Positions 521-41,176 of a DNA stretch of 64,000 nucleotides are shown here, in pieces; within the stretch, counting starts at the first letter, position 1, and each line of letters begins with the position of its first letter. This stretch comes from a virus (Duplodnaviria > Heunggongvirae > Uroviricota > Caudoviricetes). The stretch lies in the IMG/VR virus record IMGVR_UViG_3300044655_003531, positions 64,001 to 128,000 of that record, one strand, 5' to 3'. The notes under the pieces were generated by a model. It was not told where the DNA came from. It saw only the letters and a list, made by a program, of their open reading frames with translations, and made no database searches. Made by a program: the position numbers and the translations under genes.

Positions 521-524
521 ATTG

Positions 525-1340
525 ATGCAAAAGGAGAACCCCATTCAAAGTTTTAAAATTTTCGAGGCAAAAAAAGGAGATCGGGCAGCTGGCACAAGAT
601 TGTCCAGAAAGCAAACAGAAATCTTAAATAAACACGTTGTTGGCACCTGGGAAATGAACAGGAAAACTGACAGGGTGGACATCACAGGCAATTTTTATCT
701 TTCTGAACCTTTTAATCAGACCCGGGAAATTGATATTTTCAAGGGGATCGGATTTGGCAAGGTGACCGGGGTTTTTTATTGCACTAGAAATTTTTTTCAA
801 GATCTAGAGGGATTTCCACAAGAAGTTCAAGGAAGTTTCAACTGTAGCGATAACTCTTTGACCTCCTTGCAGGGAGGACCTACTAAAATAGGGAAGAATT
901 TCTCTTGCAACAACAACAATCTTAAAGATCTAGTTGGGGGTCCTGTTGAAGTTGGTGGGCAGTACTTGGCCTTTGGTAATCCCTTAACCAGTTTGGTAGG
1001 AGCTCCAGTTAAATTGAAGAAAGGTTTTTACTCCGATTTGGTCGATTTTAATGAAGGTAAATGGAATTATCTAGGTTGGATACAAGCCTTAGAAGAAGCT
1101 AAATCCAAAAATTTTACCCGTATTGAAGCTCTGATTTCAACCCTTCCTTTTTTAGATGTAAATTTCTTGAAGAATTATATTGTCGATAATCCAGATCGCA
1201 TGGTGGATCTAGCTATGTTTTGGGAATATCCAGAAGTTGCCAATTTCAGACGGGAGCTAGAAAAAGTTCTAGATCTCAATACGAAGAAAAAAGTGAAAAT
1301 TCTGAGCAATATGAGGGGATATTTCTCTACTTTTCGATAA
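525..1340 (+). CDS. LRR-like protein with capsid-targeting-like N-terminus; diverged relative of the 10197-13094 trio
   Basis: N-term NPIQSFKIFEA; repeats such as FNCSDNSLTSLQGGPTKIGKNFSCNNNNLKDLVGGP; same overall layout as the trio (GTW..VD cap, repeats, helical tail). Confidence 0.75.
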   Translation: MQKENPIQSFKIFEAKKGDRAAGTRLSRKQTEILNKHVVGTWEMNRKTDRVDITGNFYLSEPFNQTREIDIFKGIGFGKVTGVFYCTRNFFQDLEGFPQEVQGSFNCSDNSLTSLQGGPTKIGKNFSCNNNNLKDLVGGPVEVGGQYLAFGNPLTSLVGAPVKLKKGFYSDLVDFNEGKWNYLGWIQALEEAKSKNFTRIEALISTLPFLDVNFLKNYIVDNPDRMVDLAMFWEYPEVANFRRELEKVLDLNTKKKVKILSNMRGYFSTFR

Positions 1341-5283: not shown

Positions 5284-5309
5284 GAGGGATTTTTTTCTTT
5301 ATATATCCC

Positions 5310-7359: not shown

Positions 7360-8286
7360 TCATGGGAGAATGAAAGGAAAATCTCTGAGGTAGGCTAAGA
7401 GAGCAAGTTCTTTCATTTTGACCTCGAATTCTATATCTATCTCTAATCCGTAATGAGCCACACTTTCATAGATCCAATCTGAGTGGGCAACCTCTCTTGC
7501 CTGGGCATCTTCGTACTTCTTTTTGGAAGAAGAGAAGTGAACTACGGGCACTGTTCCAGCCGGCCAGGTAGAGAAGCAGAGCTTAAGGGCTTCTTCTTCG
7601 GAGAGAGCAGAGGGGTGACATTGATTATGAAGAAAGTCGAAGGTAATGGGAATCCCTACTCTCTGATGAACCAGCCTAAAAAGATCCTCGGCGTGAAAGC
7701 CAGACTTCTTGTCATCCACCTCCACTACCAATCTTTTTCTGACATTAGGAGGAGTGAGCTCTACCTGTCGGCAGAATCTCTCTGCTGCTTCTTCTTTCGT
7801 AGGCTGGGAAGTGTTGACGTGGATGTTAATGGGGTAGAAATATGACTGATCTAAACCCATCAAATCCATAATTTCTGCGTGTTGCCTAAGATCTTTTTGG
7901 GCAGCCCGAACCACTGAGTCTTGTTTGGATGCCAGAACTGCGAAGTGGGAAGGGTGGAAAGTTAGTCTTTGATCCCCCATTTTGGCCTCTTCTCCCGCCA
8001 TTTGCAAAAAAGATTTGATCTCGGCAAACCCAGGTAGATCTGAAAACTCGTATTCACTACACCAGGGAAAAATATCAGAGGACATTCGATACATTCTTAC
8101 CCCCTGCTGATTGTTCCATTTAATGATTTGAATTAGATCTCTGCAATTGGCCAAAGCCAGTTCAGACACATAGTCCAGTCCTTTGGCCAGAAATGTTTTT
8201 TTCACCATTGACCTGTTGGTGGTAATCCGGGGTTGGCCCTGAGTTTCACCCAGAGTTAGATTGATGCAGCAGTAGCCGTGTCTCAA
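7360..8286 (-). CDS. uvsE: UV damage endonuclease UvsE/UvdE
   Basis: GYCCIN, MYRMSSDIFPW, RLTFHPSHF, INIHV, RLVVEVDD, FDFLHNQC, VHFSS, HSDWI, EVKMKE. Confidence 0.93.
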   Translation of the reverse strand: MRHGYCCINLTLGETQGQPRITTNRSMVKKTFLAKGLDYVSELALANCRDLIQIIKWNNQQGVRMYRMSSDIFPWCSEYEFSDLPGFAEIKSFLQMAGEEAKMGDQRLTFHPSHFAVLASKQDSVVRAAQKDLRQHAEIMDLMGLDQSYFYPINIHVNTSQPTKEEAAERFCRQVELTPPNVRKRLVVEVDDKKSGFHAEDLFRLVHQRVGIPITFDFLHNQCHPSALSEEEALKLCFSTWPAGTVPVVHFSSSKKKYEDAQAREVAHSDWIYESVAHYGLEIDIEFEVKMKELALLAYLRDFPFILP

Positions 8287-8297
8287 GATAGAAGGTT

Positions 8298-10085
8298 TTA
8301 GATTTTATTTTGCAACCAGTTCTTACGAAGCTCTGAAGAATTACCGAAAGCCATTTCGAGCATTTGTTTAGATTTCTTATCTCCCACAATGGCAACTATT
8401 CTTTTATTTTTCATGACATAATCCCAATCGTCCAAAGATAGAGAACCTAAACCTTTAAGATATCTGATGTTGGACATTTTCTTCTTGGAGCTAGCCTCTT
8501 TATACTCCGCCAGAGAATAGAAATACTCTTTCTGCTTGTCACCAGAGGTAACCAAGGGTGTTTCTAGAATATAAAGCATACGTTTGGCAATAACCCAGGG
8601 AAACCAGTTGTGAAAGAGGGAGATGAGAAGGGAAGTAATGTGGGATCCATCAGGATCCTGATCGGTGGCGATAATGATTTTTTGGTAGGGGCATTGGCCT
8701 GAGTCTAATCCTGGGTCCAGATTCAGGATGTGCATCAATTCCAATATCTCTTTGTTATCTGAGAGGTCGGACAGATTTCTGGCGTTTTTGATCTTGCCTT
8801 TCAGTGCATAAACACCGTCCCGGGCAGGGCTTCTTTTCTGAAGAATACTGCCCATGGCCGATAGACCTTCAACAATAAAAATATTTTCTGCTACTCTAGA
8901 GTTAGGCGGAAAATACTTATGAGAGAATTTGATATTAATTGATTTTTTCTCTTTCCTGATTTTTTTGAGGGCCGTGTCTTTTTTTCTTTCTTCAACCTTA
9001 TCTCTGATTTTTTTGAAAAGAGGTGTGGAAAAAAATTTTTTGATTTGAGGTTCAAACGAATCAGTAATAAGCCTTTCAATCTCTTCCCGCTTTGTCACAT
9101 ATTTGGTTTTGTTCTGGTCCCCGAACTTTACTAAGGCGGGGGGTAGGTTCAGAATTAAGCAAAAATCGTAGAAGTGATGACCCAAAGAATCCTCGAGTTC
9201 TCCGTTGATGAGATCCAGAATAATCTTCTGGTGGATCCCTGTACACATGGCACTGTTTACAAAAGCTAACGACCCCGAATTCTCCGTTTTTTCCCAGATT
9301 AAAATTTCCCCCAGTGAATTCTTATAAGATAACTGGTGGAGAACATCGGTTGTAATATAAATTCTTTCGGGTCCCCAGTGAAACTCAATGTCGATTTTTC
9401 GGGTGTGAGCTTCAGATTCTAAGACTCTTTTCTTCAGAATCAGGATGGAATGAAGAATTTGGCGATCCCATCGGCACCCATCAAAAATTGTTTCTAAAGG
9501 CACAAAAGACACTGAAGTACCTAATTCTTCCGTCTGCCTGGGCAGAACCTCAGGTTTGCTGGATTTAAAATTCTTCCATTCCTGACGGTAGGATTCTTTA
9601 GTGTTAGTGGTGTGAATTGAAAAGAAAGATGACAGAGCATTGACTAAACTAACCCCCATTCCGTTGGTACCAATCAGAGTTTCAGAGGTGCCCTCATTGT
9701 CAAAATTAGAACCAGCTCTGAGCATAGAAACAGCAGTCTGGATGTTGCTCATTTTGCTCTTTTCGTTAATTTGAGATCCATCAACAAAACCTCCTCCGCT
9801 GTCAGTAATAGTCACTGAGTTTCGAATTGGATCCACAAAAACTTTTATCCAGGGCATGGATTTTTTCATGCGTTTGGCTTCATCCACACAGTTGGAAAAG
9901 ACTTCGTCAAAGAGTTTGTACATCCCAACTGAAATTTGTTTAGGGACCAGACAAATTTTATCGCTTTCTACCGAAGGAATCATTTCCTCCGATAACTTAA
10001 CGGAGCCAACGTAGATAGTAGGCCTTTTTAATATGTGCTCGAAGTCGCTAAGGACCTGGATTTTTTTGCTGGGTTGGATAGTCAT
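8298..10085 (-). CDS. Type II DNA topoisomerase, GyrB/ParE-like subunit (gp39+gp60-like, unsplit)
   Basis: EHILKRPTIYVGS, EVFSNCVDE, GSNF, GTNGMG (GHKL domain); VEGLSA, PLKGK-like ALKGK, TDQDPDGSHI (TOPRIM), YLKGLGS. Confidence 0.93.
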   Translation of the reverse strand: MTIQPSKKIQVLSDFEHILKRPTIYVGSVKLSEEMIPSVESDKICLVPKQISVGMYKLFDEVFSNCVDEAKRMKKSMPWIKVFVDPIRNSVTITDSGGGFVDGSQINEKSKMSNIQTAVSMLRAGSNFDNEGTSETLIGTNGMGVSLVNALSSFFSIHTTNTKESYRQEWKNFKSSKPEVLPRQTEELGTSVSFVPLETIFDGCRWDRQILHSILILKKRVLESEAHTRKIDIEFHWGPERIYITTDVLHQLSYKNSLGEILIWEKTENSGSLAFVNSAMCTGIHQKIILDLINGELEDSLGHHFYDFCLILNLPPALVKFGDQNKTKYVTKREEIERLITDSFEPQIKKFFSTPLFKKIRDKVEERKKDTALKKIRKEKKSINIKFSHKYFPPNSRVAENIFIVEGLSAMGSILQKRSPARDGVYALKGKIKNARNLSDLSDNKEILELMHILNLDPGLDSGQCPYQKIIIATDQDPDGSHITSLLISLFHNWFPWVIAKRMLYILETPLVTSGDKQKEYFYSLAEYKEASSKKKMSNIRYLKGLGSLSLDDWDYVMKNKRIVAIVGDKKSKQMLEMAFGNSSELRKNWLQNKI

Positions 10086-10127
10086 GGTGTAGAAGTGTAA
10101 ATGTAAAACATAAATGCAATTGAAAGT

Positions 10128-10155
10128 CTTCTATGACAGAATTTTTTAAGGTTTC
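10128..10155 (-). promoter_or_regulatory. Putative early/middle promoter GAAAC-N17-TAGAAG
   Basis: Same spacing as the other GAAAY sites; weaker -10 match. Confidence 0.35.
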
Positions 10156-10196
10156 GAGGTGGTGCTATTCAGGGAGGTATAACAGATATATAAGGC

Positions 10197-11180
10197 GTGA
10201 AACACCTCCAATCCTTTTCCCTGTTCGAAGCTCGGAAGACTTCAGATCTGACCCAAAAGCAAAAGACTTTCCTGACCAAATACACGCAAGGGACCTGGTC
10301 GGTCAACCGACAGACCGGTCTGGTCGATGTGGAAGGAGATTTTGACTGTAGTTACAGCGGACTGAGGTCTCTATCGGGCATCTCGTTCGGACATGTCAGT
10401 GGGAATTTCTCCTGTGCCGGCAACGATCTGACCTCCCTGGCCGGGGCACCCCAGACGGTGGGTGGGTATTTCTCCTGCGACAACAACCAGCTGACCTCCC
10501 TGGTCGGGGCACCCCAGACGGTGTGTGGGAGTTTCTTCTGTCAAGGCAACCATCTGACCTCCCTGGCAGGGGCACCTCAGACGGTGGGTGGGGTTTTCGA
10601 CTGTTCCGGCAACCAGCTGACGACCCTGGCCGGGGCACCTCAGAAGGTAAATAGGAGTTTCGGCTGTTCCGGCAATCGACTGATCTCTCTGGCCGGGGCA
10701 CCTCAGACGGTGGGTGGGAATTTCTACTGCGACAACAACCAGCTGACCTCCCTGGTCGGGGCACCTCAGACGGTGGGTCGGGATTTCTGGTGTTCCCACA
10801 ACCGGCTGACGACCCTGGTCGGGGCACCTCAGACGGTGGGTGGGTATTTCTTCTGCGACTCTTTCAAACTCCGGAGTGGGGAATGGAATCCCCAGGGCTG
10901 GTTGGCCATTCTGGCCACTGGAGATAGAAAAGCCCGGAGGCTGATTGTGACCCTGCCCATGTTCGATGCCGGCTTCTGGCTGCAGAAACTGAAGGGAGAC
11001 TTGAAGAAAGACGGTCAGGTGCTTCTGCAGCTGGCAGACCTCTGGGATAAGTCAGGCTGGGAGGAGCAGAGACAGGAGATCGAACAGAGACTCAGTCCTG
11101 AGCAGCTTCGGGTCATCAAGGCCCTAAAGACCAAATTGGGCTACGTCAATCCCTGGAAAGACTTTGACGGGATTGTCTAG
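10197..11180 (+). CDS. Variable LRR protein copy A (7 GAPQ repeats)
   Basis: GTG start 4 nt after GATATATA (10185-10192); MKHLQSFSLFE tag; 21-aa repeat V-x-G-x-F-x-C-x-x-N-Q-L-T-S/T-L-x-G-A-P-Q-T. Confidence 0.9.
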   Translation: MKHLQSFSLFEARKTSDLTQKQKTFLTKYTQGTWSVNRQTGLVDVEGDFDCSYSGLRSLSGISFGHVSGNFSCAGNDLTSLAGAPQTVGGYFSCDNNQLTSLVGAPQTVCGSFFCQGNHLTSLAGAPQTVGGVFDCSGNQLTTLAGAPQKVNRSFGCSGNRLISLAGAPQTVGGNFYCDNNQLTSLVGAPQTVGRDFWCSHNRLTTLVGAPQTVGGYFFCDSFKLRSGEWNPQGWLAILATGDRKARRLIVTLPMFDAGFWLQKLKGDLKKDGQVLLQLADLWDKSGWEEQRQEIEQRLSPEQLRVIKALKTKLGYVNPWKDFDGIV

Positions 11181-11193
11181 AGATATATAAGGC

Positions 11194-11976
11194 GTGAAAC
11201 ACCTCCAATCCTTTTCCCTGTTCGAAGCCCGGAAGACTTCAGGCCTGACCCAAAAGCAAAAGACTTTCCTGACCAAATACACGCAAGGGACCTGGTCGGT
11301 CAACCAGCAGACCGGTCTGGTCGATGTGAAAGGAGATTTTGACTGTAGTTACAAAAGACTGAAGTCTCTGCGGGGAATCTCGTTCGGACATGTCAGTGGG
11401 GATTTCTGGTGTTTCAGAAACCAGCTGACGACCCTGGCCGGGGCACCCCAGACGGTGGGTGGGAGTTTCTTCTGTGGCGGCAACCAGCTGAAGACCCTGG
11501 CCGGGGCACCCCAGACGGTGGGTGGGGATTTCTACTGTCAAGGCAACCAGCTGACTTCCCTGGTCGGGGCACCCCAGACGGTAAATGGGGATTTCTACTG
11601 TTTCAGAAACCAGCTGACGACCCTGGCCGGGGCACCCCAGACGGTGAGGGAGGGTTTCTACTGCGACTCTTTCGAAGTCCGAAGTGGGAAATGGAATCCC
11701 CAGGGCTGGACCGAGATTCTGGCCAAAAAAAATAGCAAAGCCCGGAGCCTGATTGTGATCCTGTTCGATGCCGGCTTCTGGCTGCAGAAACTGAAGGGAG
11801 ATCTGAAGAAAGACGGCCAGGTGCTCCTGCAGCTGGCAGACCTCTGGGATGAACCAGGCTGGGAGGAGCAGAGACAGAAGATCGAACAGAGACTCAGTCC
11901 TGAGCAGCTTCGGGTCATCAAGGCCCTAAAGACCAAATTGGGCTACGTCGATCCCTGGAAGGACGGGATTGTCTAG
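11194..11976 (+). CDS. Variable LRR protein copy B (4 GAPQ repeats)
   Basis: Same caps and repeat; GATATATA at 11182-11189. Confidence 0.9.
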   Translation: MKHLQSFSLFEARKTSGLTQKQKTFLTKYTQGTWSVNQQTGLVDVKGDFDCSYKRLKSLRGISFGHVSGDFWCFRNQLTTLAGAPQTVGGSFFCGGNQLKTLAGAPQTVGGDFYCQGNQLTSLVGAPQTVNGDFYCFRNQLTTLAGAPQTVREGFYCDSFEVRSGKWNPQGWTEILAKKNSKARSLIVILFDAGFWLQKLKGDLKKDGQVLLQLADLWDEPGWEEQRQKIEQRLSPEQLRVIKALKTKLGYVDPWKDGIV

Positions 11977-11990
11977 AGATATATAAGGGC

Positions 11991-13094
11991 GTGAAACACC
12001 TCCAATCCTTTTCCCTGTTCGAAGCCCGGAAGACTTCAGATCTGACCCAAAAGCAAAAGACTTTCCTGACCAAATACACGCAAGGGACCTGGTCGGTCAA
12101 CCCAGAGACAGGGCTAGTGGATGTAAAGGGAAGTTTTGCTTGTGGGGGTAAAAGATTAAAGAGCTTACAGGGCATCTCGTTCGGACATGTCAGTGGGAAT
12201 TTCTACTGTTCCGTCAACCAGCTGACCTCCCTGGCAGGGGCACCCCAGAAGGTGAGTGGGGATTTCTCCTGTTTCAGAAACCAGCTGACCTCTCTGGTCG
12301 GGGCACCTCAGACGGTGGATGGGCATTTTTACTGTGGCGGCAACCGGCTGACGACCCTGGTCGGGGCACCCCAGACGGTGGATGGGGATTTAGACTGTTC
12401 CTACAACCAGCTGACGACCCTGGCCGGGGCACCTCAGACGATGGATGGGCATTTCTTCTGTTCCTACAACCAGCTGACGACCCTGGTCGGGGCACCTCAG
12501 ACGGTGGGTGGGTATTTCTCCTGTTCCAGAAACCAGCTGACCTCCCTGTCAGGGGCACCCCAGAAGGTGGGTGGGAATTTCTCCTGTTCCGGCAACCAGC
12601 TGACCTCCCTGGCAGGGGCACCCCAGACGGTGGATGGGTATTTCTCCTGTTCCTACAACCAGCTGACGACCCTGGCCGGGGCACCTCAGACGGTGGGTGG
12701 GAATTTCTACTGCGACAATAACCGGCTGACCTCCCTGGTCGGGGCACCACAGACGGTGGGTGGGATTCTCCGGTGCGACTCTTTCACACTCCAAAGTGGG
12801 GCATGGAATCCCCTGGGCTGGACCAAGATTCTGGCCACTGGAGATAGCGAAGCCCGGAGCCTGATTGTGACCCTGCCCATGTTCGATGCCGGCTTCTGGC
12901 TGCAGAAACTGAAGGGAGACCTGAAGAAAGACGGCCAGGTGCTCCTGCAGCTGGCAGACCTCTGGGATAAGTCAGGCTGGGAGGAGCAGAGACAGGAGAT
13001 CGAACAGAGACTCAGTCCTGAGCAGCTTCGGGTCATTAAGGCCCTGAAGACCAAATTGGGCTACGTCGATCCCTGGAAGGACGGGATTGTCTAG
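11991..13094 (+). CDS. Variable LRR protein copy C (9 GAPQ repeats)
   Basis: Same caps and repeat; GATATATA at 11978-11985. Confidence 0.9.
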   Translation: MKHLQSFSLFEARKTSDLTQKQKTFLTKYTQGTWSVNPETGLVDVKGSFACGGKRLKSLQGISFGHVSGNFYCSVNQLTSLAGAPQKVSGDFSCFRNQLTSLVGAPQTVDGHFYCGGNRLTTLVGAPQTVDGDLDCSYNQLTTLAGAPQTMDGHFFCSYNQLTTLVGAPQTVGGYFSCSRNQLTSLSGAPQKVGGNFSCSGNQLTSLAGAPQTVDGYFSCSYNQLTTLAGAPQTVGGNFYCDNNRLTSLVGAPQTVGGILRCDSFTLQSGAWNPLGWTKILATGDSEARSLIVTLPMFDAGFWLQKLKGDLKKDGQVLLQLADLWDKSGWEEQRQEIEQRLSPEQLRVIKALKTKLGYVDPWKDGIV

Positions 13095-13125: not shown

Positions 13126-14007
13126 ATGAAAGAAAAAATAAGAAGGATTCAAAACTTCAGAGATTTTAGCAACTTGAATAGTTCCTTTAATTTAGATTTA
13201 GTTCTGGAAAAAATGGGTCGAAGAAGCCCAGTTGAATTGGCAAATTTACTGGAAAAATCCATCAAAGGTCTAGGAACGGACGAAGAACTGTTGCTGAAAA
13301 CTTTATTAGAAATTCCTGATTTGAAAACTCTGGGGGAAATTGATGCCATTTTTGCTAAATTTCCAGCCGTTTATTCATATAGAAGTGTTGGATCCCTTAT
13401 TAATTCCGAGTTAGGTTTTTTTGATCAGAAAATAATCGATGAAATAAAAAAACACACGGATCAATTGAAAGTCACAAATGACTTCTTACAAAAACAAGAA
13501 GAATCTCGTTTGAAGGACGAAAAAGTTAGAAGAACCGCGGAAGAAAGCATTAAATTGCACGAGGGTATTAAATATCAAATTTACCGGGACTCTAGAAAAA
13601 ATCTATCAATTGGAATTGGAATGAATCTAGAAAGATCGGATGCAGATACCAGGTTAAAGGAAATTGGGGCCAATCCAAAATTAATCAGGTCGGGAAAAGA
13701 GAAATTGAATGACAGTCAAATTCAGATTCTGTTTAAAAAAGACGTGGATAAAGCTATCGAAGATGCCAAATCTCTGGTTCCTGATTTGGGTCAACAGCCC
13801 TTACCGGTACAATGTGTTTTGATAGAAATGGCATTCAACCTCGGAAAGTCGGGCCTGTCCGAATTCAAAAAATTCTTATCTCACATCCAAAACATGAATT
13901 ACAAATTGGCTTCCCAAGAGATGCTCAATTCAACCTGGGCCAAGCAAGTGGGGAACAGAGCAAAAGAGCTGGCCAAAAGAATTGAAACTTACGAAGTAAA
14001 AAAATAA
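13126..14007 (+). CDS. Annexin-repeat + phage lysozyme (GH24-like) fusion with capsid-targeting-like N-terminus
   Basis: LEKSIKGLGTDEELLLKTLLEI matches the annexin K-G-x-G-T-D-E motif; C-terminal IKLHEGIKYQIYRDSRKNLSIGIGMNL...EMAFNLG...STWAKQVGNRA is T4-type lysozyme-like. Confidence 0.8.
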   Translation: MKEKIRRIQNFRDFSNLNSSFNLDLVLEKMGRRSPVELANLLEKSIKGLGTDEELLLKTLLEIPDLKTLGEIDAIFAKFPAVYSYRSVGSLINSELGFFDQKIIDEIKKHTDQLKVTNDFLQKQEESRLKDEKVRRTAEESIKLHEGIKYQIYRDSRKNLSIGIGMNLERSDADTRLKEIGANPKLIRSGKEKLNDSQIQILFKKDVDKAIEDAKSLVPDLGQQPLPVQCVLIEMAFNLGKSGLSEFKKFLSHIQNMNYKLASQEMLNSTWAKQVGNRAKELAKRIETYEVKK

Positions 14008-14015
14008 AAAAAAAA

Positions 14016-14579
14016 ATGAAAATACTGAACTTCGGAGAATTTAGGGATCAGATCAGTGAAAATCTGCAATATCACCTCCAAAATGATCTGACTCTAGCCA
14101 CTAGCGTCTTTAGAATTGGCTCCGAAGCCTGGTACGGGGTAATAGATGAGACTAGACGCCTTTGGGAATCAAATTCGATTGAATTAGACGACGACGACAC
14201 TTTTTTGATTAGCACCGAACTGGGCCGAAGGGGAATCTTTGAAGGGAAAGAGGTGTGGCTGGATTTACCTCTCCCTGAAGAGGATCTGCACGAGGCAGAA
14301 TATAAGGGCAGGAAGGTTTCTCTGAACAAACCTTTCAGAACCCCGGGTGCTCCTAGAAAATTTGGGGTTTACACTAAAAACGAGTCTGGTAACGTCGTTC
14401 TAGTTAGATTCGGCCAGCCAGGTATGAGAATAAGAAATGACGATCCTCAGAGATCAAAATCTTTTAGAGCAAGACACAATTGTGATAACCCAGGTCCCAA
14501 ATGGAAAGCCAGATACTGGTCCTGTAACGTGTCAAGATACAGAAAACTACTGGGCATTAAATCTTCAAGTCCATGGTAG
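14016..14579 (+). CDS. Conserved hypothetical head-associated protein
   Basis: N-term MKILNFGEF..ISE tag; basic C-terminal domain KFGVY..VRFG..RSKSFRARHNC..ARYWSC common in large phages. Confidence 0.7.
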   Translation: MKILNFGEFRDQISENLQYHLQNDLTLATSVFRIGSEAWYGVIDETRRLWESNSIELDDDDTFLISTELGRRGIFEGKEVWLDLPLPEEDLHEAEYKGRKVSLNKPFRTPGAPRKFGVYTKNESGNVVLVRFGQPGMRIRNDDPQRSKSFRARHNCDNPGPKWKARYWSCNVSRYRKLLGIKSSSPW

Positions 14580-25401: not shown

Positions 25402-25404
25402 CTC

Positions 25405-25797
25405 TTATATATCCAACCGAACCTCCTCTAAAAACTTGGCCAATTTTTTATCGGTCACCTCTAGATCTCTCATTTTTTGGATGAAAATTTTCCAGGAGTC
25501 GTGGGCATATCTGCCCACACCTGGCAGTTCTGAAACTTGATGAAACCCCTCTAGCCATTTGTGGCTCATCTGAATAATTCTTTGGGCTTTGACCCGAGAA
25601 AAGCCGGTGCTTTTGATCAACTGAATCAGCTGATCAACATCACAATTTACGGCAGTGTCAGGATCGGGCACGAAAGAAAAAACGTCAGGGAGCACTTTTC
25701 GGACTTGCTGGTTTGAGGTCTGGTTAAGAAGAATGCAGCAGACCAGCATTCTCCAGGGTTCTTCTACATAATCTTCTTGAATAAGTCTTTCTCTCAT
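25405..25797 (-). CDS. MBD4-like HhH-GPD DNA glycosylase
   Basis: PWRMLVCCILLNQTS, HhH ELPGVGRY, catalytic-Asp region AHDSWKIF; likely start 25797. Confidence 0.8.
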   Translation of the reverse strand: MRERLIQEDYVEEPWRMLVCCILLNQTSNQQVRKVLPDVFSFVPDPDTAVNCDVDQLIQLIKSTGFSRVKAQRIIQMSHKWLEGFHQVSELPGVGRYAHDSWKIFIQKMRDLEVTDKKLAKFLEEVRLDI

Positions 25798-40590: not shown

Positions 40591-40615
40591 GGATGTGTTT
40601 GTTTTACTTATATAT

Positions 40616-41176
40616 CTAATTTGTTTTCTGGACTTCTGAATTCAGTTCCATAAAATTACATTTAAAGCCCACGGTAAAAGTTGAAACTGTAGGGGCATTA
40701 GCGGTGTAATTTAAATCAATGTTGTTGACTGAGGTAAGAGTTACTTCTTTAAAAAGAACTGAAATAACTACTCCCCCCTCATTATCTAAGATTCGAAGAG
40801 GTAAGATAGGAGTGAACAGGGCATCGTTTTGAAAGGCCAGTTTATCTAAGACAGTTTCCAACATGATAAAGTAATTCACAAATCCTTCACTGATCCTAAA
40901 AGAAACAGAGAAATCTCTGGAGAATAAATCCTGCACAGGGGTTGCACTCTGGTAATTAATCTGTTTGCCGAGATTTCTGGTTTGTGACACTAAATCAATG
41001 TTCATGGTCGGAAAAGAGACAGATTGAATACTGCTGTTCATATAAGAGGTCAGGGTATCGTAGGGGGTGGGCTGTTTTTTCAGATAATCAACCCACTTGG
41101 TCTCTACCGAGCCGGGAAAAAATCCTTTCGGGAAATTGAAATAAAAACTATTCGATCTGACATTTAGTATCGCCAT
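40616..41176 (-). CDS. Probable tail tube / tube-initiator-like protein
   Basis: 186 aa beta-rich (IQSVSFP, FSVSF, FTVGF) at the end of the structural block; no unique motif. Confidence 0.45.
   Translation of the reverse strand: MAILNVRSNSFYFNFPKGFFPGSVETKWVDYLKKQPTPYDTLTSYMNSSIQSVSFPTMNIDLVSQTRNLGKQINYQSATPVQDLFSRDFSVSFRISEGFVNYFIMLETVLDKLAFQNDALFTPILPLRILDNEGGVVISVLFKEVTLTSVNNIDLNYTANAPTVSTFTVGFKCNFMELNSEVQKTN

Follow-up and report, generated by a model that had tools for sequence, protein, structure and literature searches.

A 64,000-nucleotide stretch of DNA from a large, uncultured phage carries three tandem paralogous genes for leucine-rich repeat (LRR) proteins on its plus strand, and it is the pattern of variation among the repeat units of these genes that concerns us here. 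The stretch, called the window below, consists of bases 64001-128000 of the 150,077-bp IMG/VR record IMGVR_UViG_3300044655_003531, for which CheckV estimates a completeness of 61%. The record has a G+C content of ~41% and encodes T4-like replication genes that are only ~30% identical to those of known phages. The LRR trio is flanked by a topoisomerase II gene and a lysozyme gene, and every copy within it is a complete gene with its own start, upstream motif and stop (Table 1). In each of the three genes, an array of 63-nt units stands between two conserved parts, an N-terminal one of ~65 residues and a C-terminal one of ~105. The encoded 21-residue units conform to the consensus V-x-G-x-F-x-C-x-x-N-x-L-T-S/T-L-A/V-G-A-P-Q-T, with 7, 4 and 9 core units in genes 1, 2 and 3, respectively, to which N-cap and C-cap strands are added in each gene. 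An earlier note on this DNA had attributed the hypervariable codons of the units either to AAY-templated mutagenesis of the kind carried out by diversity-generating retroelements (DGRs), or by some other trans-acting mutator, or else to strong positive selection followed by shuffling. The evidence assembled below makes it very likely that the hypervariable codons reflect diversifying selection, together with recombination, in a phage LRR family that is young and has expanded in tandem.

The codon pattern itself is real. An exact recount over 23 strands (the 20 core units and 3 C-cap strands) reproduced the figures given in the earlier note for the codon before Phe (codon 4 of the unit), which ends in T in 23/23 strands while taking eight forms that specify eight residues (aat, tat, agt, gtt, gat, ggt, cat and att), for the codon after Val (T-ending in 22/23), for the codon between Phe and Cys (C-ending in 20/23) and for the codon after Cys (C-ending in 21/23). 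The triplet gca is present in 20/20 core units, and the exceptions tgg, caa, aga and cgg were all found. Sixteen units added from population alleles obey the same rule and bring act and ttt into the set of codons before Phe. When changes are counted minimally, the five hypervariable codons of the unit show 22 changes at positions 1-2 and 4 at position 3, as compared to 11 and 14, respectively, in the framework (Fisher P = 0.003 for the framework against the hypervariable codons); the excess of change at the first two positions is beyond chance.

The same note had regarded the wobble positions of these codons as specially frozen, and this part of its description does not hold. Mean third-position diversity over the 20 core units is 0.16 at the five hypervariable codons and 0.18 at the 16 framework codons, where wobble variation takes such forms as ccc/cct, acc/acg, tgt/tgc and gtg/gta/gtc. 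Across 59 related arrays from other phage contigs, hypervariable and framework wobble diversity are related by a slope of 1.09 and an intercept of -0.04 (r 0.83), with means of 0.28 and 0.29, respectively, and diversity at positions 1-2 stays at ~0.48 whatever the age of the array. The wobble looks frozen in young arrays, and this appearance is lost in old ones. Since wobble diversity tracks that of the framework and is low only when arrays are young, the wobble bases behave as ordinary synonymous sites, and the anomaly resides in the first two positions of codons 2, 4, 6, 8 and 9 of each unit.

Asn, Asp, His, Tyr, Ser (as AGY), Phe, Ile and Cys are encoded by NNY codons only (N, any nucleotide; Y, T or C). 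The NNY look of the variable positions arises because the residues favoured there (in one-letter code, N, D, H, Y and S) have only NNY codons. The residues K, E, Q, M and W do not occur at codon 4 in the trio or in its closest relatives. Of the variable codons in the trio, ~9% are not of the NNY type, and in those closest relatives (record G001) such codons, with gaa, aaa, atg and gga among them, are frequent at codons 6 and 8. The founder unit passes on its choice of T or C at the wobble position, which is nearly fixed within a lineage; a comparison of 79 loci shows codons 5-10 switching freely from one lineage to another. This free switching is also the reason why we dropped a constraint at the nucleotide level that had been suggested by two families sharing 7/8 of their Y-ending choices.

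Selection on these codons was estimated by the Nei-Gojobori method over the 20 core units, with hypervariable and framework codons treated as separate classes. At the hypervariable codons, the proportions of nonsynonymous and synonymous differences (pN and pS) are 0.50 and 0.10 and the ratio of the corresponding substitution rates (dN/dS) is 7.3, as compared to a pN of 0.077, a pS of 0.195 and a dN/dS of 0.36 in the framework. A more conservative count of minimal changes, in which each distinct codon is scored once, gave a ratio (omega) of 4.5 (P 0.055) at the hypervariable codons of the 20 units and of 4.7 (P 0.009) for 36 units that include the population alleles, with an omega of 0.4 in the framework. 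The N- and C-terminal domains of the paralogs differ by a dS of 0.07-0.48, from which it follows that the whole cluster is young. The selection-and-shuffling alternative of the earlier note is supported, with a dN/dS of 4.5-7 at five codons against ~0.4 in the framework and with recombinant alleles in population contigs. Recurring pairs of codons 8 and 9 had also been considered as traces of unit duplication, a candidate that was set aside when 12 such pairs were observed and 8.8 were expected from shuffled pairs (P 0.16).

The variable codons fall on one face of a predicted solenoid. The AlphaFold2 model of the gene 3 product (predicted local distance difference test score, pLDDT, 89; predicted template modelling score, pTM, 0.83) comprises an N-cap, an LRR solenoid and a helical C-terminal domain, and DSSP assigns a short strand at F5-x6 in every unit of the model. 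Foldseek matches to this model are modest (E 1e-4 to 7e-3, 12-26% identity) and include the LRR domains of YopM, IpaH and SspH and the cysteine-ladder domain of InlJ; viral LRR proteins are matched as well. Pfam yields only a marginal match to LRR_4, and beyond this neither Pfam nor PHROGs identified an informative family, the latter giving two families without known function. As modelled, the proteins belong to the short bacterial type of LRR in its cysteine-ladder variant, with a regular strand in each unit and with F5, C7 and N10 in the places of the core L, L and N in LxxLxLxxN. The alternation with F5 and C7 and the strand assignment suggest that positions 4, 6, 8 and 9 are the classical exposed x positions that contact ligand. 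A further structural match in BFVD, A0A481YU71, is annotated as a dUTP diphosphatase of the metagenomic "Marseillevirus LCMAC102" and is 41% identical to the LRR part over 182 columns (root-mean-square deviation 2.1); either the same type of LRR exists in giant-virus bins or there is phage DNA in those bins.

Contigs from other samples show how the trio varies in nature. An identical gene 1 protein is encoded on 8 contigs and an identical gene 2 protein on 15, nine of which were examined, each from a different JGI sample. Over 7.0 kb of contig L015 and 5.6 kb of contig L017, identity to the window is 100%; no contig differs from window positions 8001-11987 (genes 1 and 2 and the DNA upstream of them) over the part that it covers, and wherever a contig includes the arrays of genes 1 and 2, these are identical. 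The allele of gene 3 that is present in the window shows no point differences in its array among contigs; L019 and L020 differ from the window only by 1-2 single-nucleotide polymorphisms, which lie in the gene 3 C-terminal domain. Another allele of gene 3 occurs in L016, L021, L018 and L023, the last two of which end soon after the start of the gene; in L016 this allele encodes 344 residues and is followed by an extra paralog. L022 is a mosaic that has the window's N-terminus and unit 1 of gene 3 and the other allele from unit 2 onwards, with differences that begin at position 12250, no more than 2 codons from a unit boundary. Within the window, a short divergent patch in the gene 3 N-cap (Table 1) accompanies an N-terminal dS of 0.36-0.48 for pairs that include gene 3, as compared to 0.11 for genes 1 and 2, and the patch is a tract acquired by gene conversion or recombination from a more distantly related member of the family. 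At the level of contigs, variation comes by blocks: the population gives direct evidence of shuffling and none of point hypermutation.

The trio belongs to a family with more than 2,980 homologs at E <=1e-10, almost all of them metagenomic. In the 9/9 records that were searched for its extent (7 of them at least 90% complete), the family is tandemly expanded, with ~2-35 matching places per genome of large and jumbo phages, and all eight relatives among these records lack a reverse transcriptase. No match to the cluster was found by megablast among GenBank phages, nor by a search for an exact 42-mer in IMG/VR, from which close records may be missing. The N-termini of the family follow the pattern M-K-x-hydrophobic-x-x-F/Y-...-hydrophobic-x-E, then A or S, with E11 invariant; in the trio the sequence is M-K-H-L-Q-S-F-S-L-F-E, and residues 1-8 are disordered in the AlphaFold2 model. 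In phage T4, a 10-residue propeptide directs the internal proteins, which are themselves a diverse arms-race set, into the prohead; residues 4 and 7 are important to targeting, and residues 8 and 10 (Glu) to gp21 cleavage (PMC9026906, PMC3012670). A gp21-type protease (Peptidase_S77) is encoded by 4/4 of the complete relatives tested that carry the family; neither Peptidase_S77 nor a gp23-type capsid gene was found in the phage's own record, a result that is uninformative as that record is 61% complete. A strict regular expression for a propeptide-like N-terminus (hydrophobic-x-x-F/Y-x-x-F/Y ... hydrophobic-x-E) detects 9 open reading frames (ORFs) in the genome. In addition to the LRR genes, such an N-terminus is found on unrelated ORFs at window positions 14016, 18268(-), 30483(-), 31333(-) and 34684(-).

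Very probably, all units of the trio have descended recently from one founder unit through duplication and unequal or homologous recombination, so that synonymous sites are still alike everywhere, including the wobble positions of the variable codons. Codons 2, 4, 6, 8 and 9 would encode the outward residues around the concave strand x-F-x-C-x-x-N, where diversifying selection for new binding surfaces has very probably driven change to near-saturation. Favoured residues with NNY codons only (Asn, Asp, His, Tyr, Ser-AGY, Phe and Ile), combined with the founder's T or C, would then create the NNY appearance, and recombination between units, paralogs and alleles would spread the new combinations. 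The selective agent may be variable host proteins, such as those of defence, to which the LRR proteins would bind if they are packaged in the head and injected. In the data presented here, this account is backed by the fold, the raised dN/dS, the missing retroelement parts, the stability of the arrays in the population and the recombinant alleles.

A DGR, or another templated or trans-acting mutator encoded by phage or host, would turn AAY codons of the units into NNY codons, and several observations speak for it: five positions of each unit show a wide choice of residues encoded by NNT and NNC codons, dN/dS greatly exceeds 1, the residues resemble those produced by DGRs (the properties of AAY are treated in bioRxiv 10.1101/2024.11.15.621889), and the record is incomplete. 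A reverse transcriptase beyond the window, as the earlier note had envisaged, was nonetheless not found: a search for RVT_1, in which positive controls were matched, detected none in the 150-kb record (61% of the genome) or in 30/30 related viral records that carry such arrays, 7 of which are at least 90% complete (172-413 kb) and have the same signature, as in young arrays of the complete genomes L031 (pN 0.39, pS 0 at variable codons) and L092 (pN 0.43, pS 0). The template that had been proposed is likewise absent from the record, where only the 20 units reach 36/53 matches in a scan by framework positions and where blastn of the cluster against the remainder gives a best E of 0.37, with no template-like copy or cassette. 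Moreover, the putative AA positions (the first two of each of the five codons) account for fewer than half of the minimal changes, 29/51 (57%) falling elsewhere, the framework adenines in aac, cag, gca and acg, at least 7 per unit, are invariant, and non-NNY codons occur at variable positions here and far more often in the closest relatives. The variable codons are spread across 23 strands of an internal LRR solenoid in three genes and do not form a C-terminal C-type lectin or Ig-like region, whereas the variable regions of DGRs are C-terminal C-type lectin folds (bioRxiv 10.1101/2024.11.15.621889). With the arrays also free of point variation across contigs, we reject a DGR or other mutator as the source of the pattern and leave it only a very small residual probability. 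A residual variant, i.e., a mutator without a reverse transcriptase that is aimed at the first two codon positions, is much less likely than the reading of injected binders given below and seems to us just as improbable.

Recombination and conversion are demonstrably active at the locus, framework dS is low, and surface residues of LRRs accept many substitutions, all of which would be expected if there were no positive selection and the variable positions were simply unconstrained while gene conversion homogenised everything else, wobble positions included. Neutral sites, however, cannot outpace the synonymous rate, and omega is 4.5-7; gene conversion alone is insufficient because it acts on contiguous tracts and the fixed bases lie in between the variable ones, such that it could not homogenise the third base and yet spare the first two of five codons. 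The biased residue set (N, D, S, Y, H and G; K, E, Q, M and W are missing from codon 4) points instead to functional filtering. We regard this neutral explanation as unlikely, if somewhat less so than a mutator. The mosaic alleles, with crossovers near unit boundaries or the gene start, and the allele replacement at gene 3 also bring to mind the variable lymphocyte receptors (VLRs) of lampreys, in which case expressed genes would be rebuilt from a library of silent LRR cassettes. Here, though, each copy is a whole gene that has a start, motif and stop of its own, no partial units or cassettes occur elsewhere in the 150 kb, and the same haplotype is unchanged in several samples, so that VLR-like assembly is scarcely credible.

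Several points weigh against diversifying selection and recombination as the explanation of the pattern or temper the confidence that can be placed in it. The units are neither independent nor free of recombination with one another, which makes the P values rough, and a dN/dS above 1 cannot by itself tell selection from a mutator aimed at the same positions. The retroelement search of the phage's own genome covers the 150-kb record, which is 61% complete; identical genes 1 and 2 are also carried by a 267-kb contig of the same phage. The nine samples may derive from one study, and assembled contigs are consensus sequences in which minority variants could be hidden. Packaging of the LRR proteins in the head and their injection, which would supply the selective pressure, is about an even call, and the N-termini resemble a T4 propeptide in sequence only. 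There is also a T excess: codon 4, and in part codons 2 and 6, are the only ones that remain T-rich across lineages, and among ~35 distinct lineage patterns (79 IMG/VR loci, L024-L102) codon 4 is T-ending in 30 and C-ending in 3. Of the framework codons, those for F, C and N are C-ending in about half of the lineage patterns, and in L024 and L037 all units (30/30) have NNT at codon 4. In the phage's own genes, codons that precede TTY are NNT in 74% of cases, as compared to 60% elsewhere, a modest codon-context bias that accounts only in part for the excess at codon 4.

The coordinates of the trio and related features are collected in Table 1. The motif GATATATAAGG, which lies directly upstream of the three starts, has 7 matches in the window at no more than one mismatch, where 0.89 are expected. 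Matches on the minus strand at 5297-5307, 25403-25413 and 40606-40616, with one mismatch each, immediately precede the start of an ORF or a start that had been flagged earlier, and relatives have a similar ATATATA-rich sequence upstream. The motif may be a late-promoter or ribosome-binding element common to genes for head cargo. In base composition the trio is foreign: G+C at third codon positions (GC3) is 0.56-0.76 in all three parts of the genes (N-terminal, repeat and C-terminal), as compared to ~41% G+C for the genome and a GC3 of 0.37 for the distant paralog; GC-rich units are also found in the closest relatives (G001, loci L024 and L037), within flanks of 40-46% G+C. Antisense ORFs inside the arrays (e.g., 10371-10799 and 12274-12750, minus strand) were rejected as by-products of the repeat. 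Public gene calls give gene 1 a 114-residue product on L015, L016, L019 and L023, the DNA of which is that of the window over the part covered, and this is an artefact of gene calling inside the repeat rather than a truncation. The lysozyme-domain protein that adjoins the trio (13126-14007) matches baseplate-hub, internal-virion and endolysin lysozyme PHROGs, and it shares the propeptide-like N-terminus with the product of the ORF that follows it (14016-14579).

Table 1. Features of the LRR gene cluster and its surroundings, in window coordinates
Feature	Position	Strand	Description	Basis
LRR gene 1	10197-11180	+	327 aa; GTG start; propeptide-like N-terminal segment, N-cap, 7 core units, C-cap strand, helical C-terminal domain	ORF and translation
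Gene 1 N-cap strand	10329-10391	+		Unit table
Gene 1 core array	10395-10835	+	7 units x 63 nt	Unit table; Tandem Repeats Finder period 63
Gene 1 C-cap strand	10836-10898	+		Unit table
LRR gene 2	11194-11976	+	260 aa; 4 core units, 11392-11643; C-cap strand, 11644-11706	
LRR gene 3	11991-13094	+	367 aa; 9 core units, 12189-12755; C-cap strand, 12756-12818; polymorphic member in the population	
Divergent patch in gene 3 N-cap	12103-12170	+	68 nt, AT-richer, sharp edges; flanks near-identical to genes 1 and 2	Three-way nucleotide alignment
Motif GATATATAAGG	10185-10195, 11182-11192, 11978-11988	+	Directly upstream of the starts of genes 1, 2 and 3 (gene 1 start, GTG)	
Distant fourth paralog	522-1340	+	272 aa; ~38% identity; GC3 0.37; degenerate units	

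The analysis removes a tempting false positive, in that hypervariable NNY codons in a phage gene are insufficient grounds for calling a DGR, and it provides a simple control in the form of the wobble diversity of variable as compared to framework codons and the decay of that pattern with array age. It also shows that a multigene LRR family of phages, with thousands of metagenomic members and no assigned function, is under strong diversifying selection and actively recombining. It is possible, if rather doubtful, that the trio is one instance of a very large undescribed family of big and jumbo phages whose capsid-targeted, injected LRR binders turn over in an arms race with variable host proteins such as those of defence systems. 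If so, the injected binders would be a virus-side counterpart of LRR immune-receptor repertoires, the variable faces would mark current conflicts between phage and host, and the family would constitute a natural scaffold library.

The closest described analogue is provided by the tandem LRR loci of Flavobacterium psychrophilum (Altae-Tran et al. 2020, PMC10392669). There, too, tandem paralogs contain a variable number of ~21-22-residue units with a few hypervariable positions on one face, strains differ through recombination, and genes for mobile elements or retroelements are absent; the products are bacterial secreted cell-surface proteins with a signal peptide and a type IX secretion system (T9SS) signal, and the loci are littered with gene fragments (PMC10392669). 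The phage genes, in contrast, lack a signal peptide and have a capsid-targeting-like N-terminus and a helical C-terminal domain, and no fragments were seen among them. With DGRs (phage BPP-1 Mtd of Bordetella and the DGRs of Bacteroides, bioRxiv 10.1101/2024.11.15.621889) the trio has in common NNY codons that encode a broad, binding-site-like set of residues, variation that is almost only nonsynonymous, and a phage context. It differs in that neither a reverse transcriptase nor a template repeat was found in the record and the variation is not specific to adenines, and also in its LRR fold and in its stability across population contigs; the resemblance is one of output only.

The units are of a size (~20-22 residues) with those of Listeria InlJ (PDB 3bz5), YopM and IpaH/SspH, and the Cys of F-x-C-x-x-N takes the place of one core Leu of LxxLxLxxN, as it does in the cysteine ladder of InlJ (PDB 3bz5). 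The caps are different from those of InlJ, YopM and IpaH, the phage proteins have a helical C-terminal domain of their own, and the Foldseek matches to these proteins are modest. As in the T4 internal proteins IPI-IPIII (PMC9026906, PMC3012670), there is a short N-terminal propeptide-like segment with key hydrophobic residues near positions 4 and 7 and a hydrophobic-x-Glu end, the genes form a hyperplastic set of the arms-race kind, and a gp21-type protease is encoded in related genomes. The mature parts are unrelated, those of T4 being small basic proteins with no LRRs, and for the LRR proteins packaging is only predicted.

In the LRRs of plant NLR/R genes (NLR, nucleotide-binding leucine-rich repeat), diversifying selection acts on the solvent-exposed residues of xxLxLxx, and the same applies to the highly conserved repeats of fungal NLR-like genes. 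The phage family resembles these systems in the confinement of dN/dS values above 1 to exposed strand residues, in high nucleotide identity between repeats, in unequal crossing-over and in the birth and death of paralogs. Unlike the plant and fungal NLRs, which are immune receptors of eukaryotic hosts, it is carried by bacterial viruses and would act on the side of the attacker.

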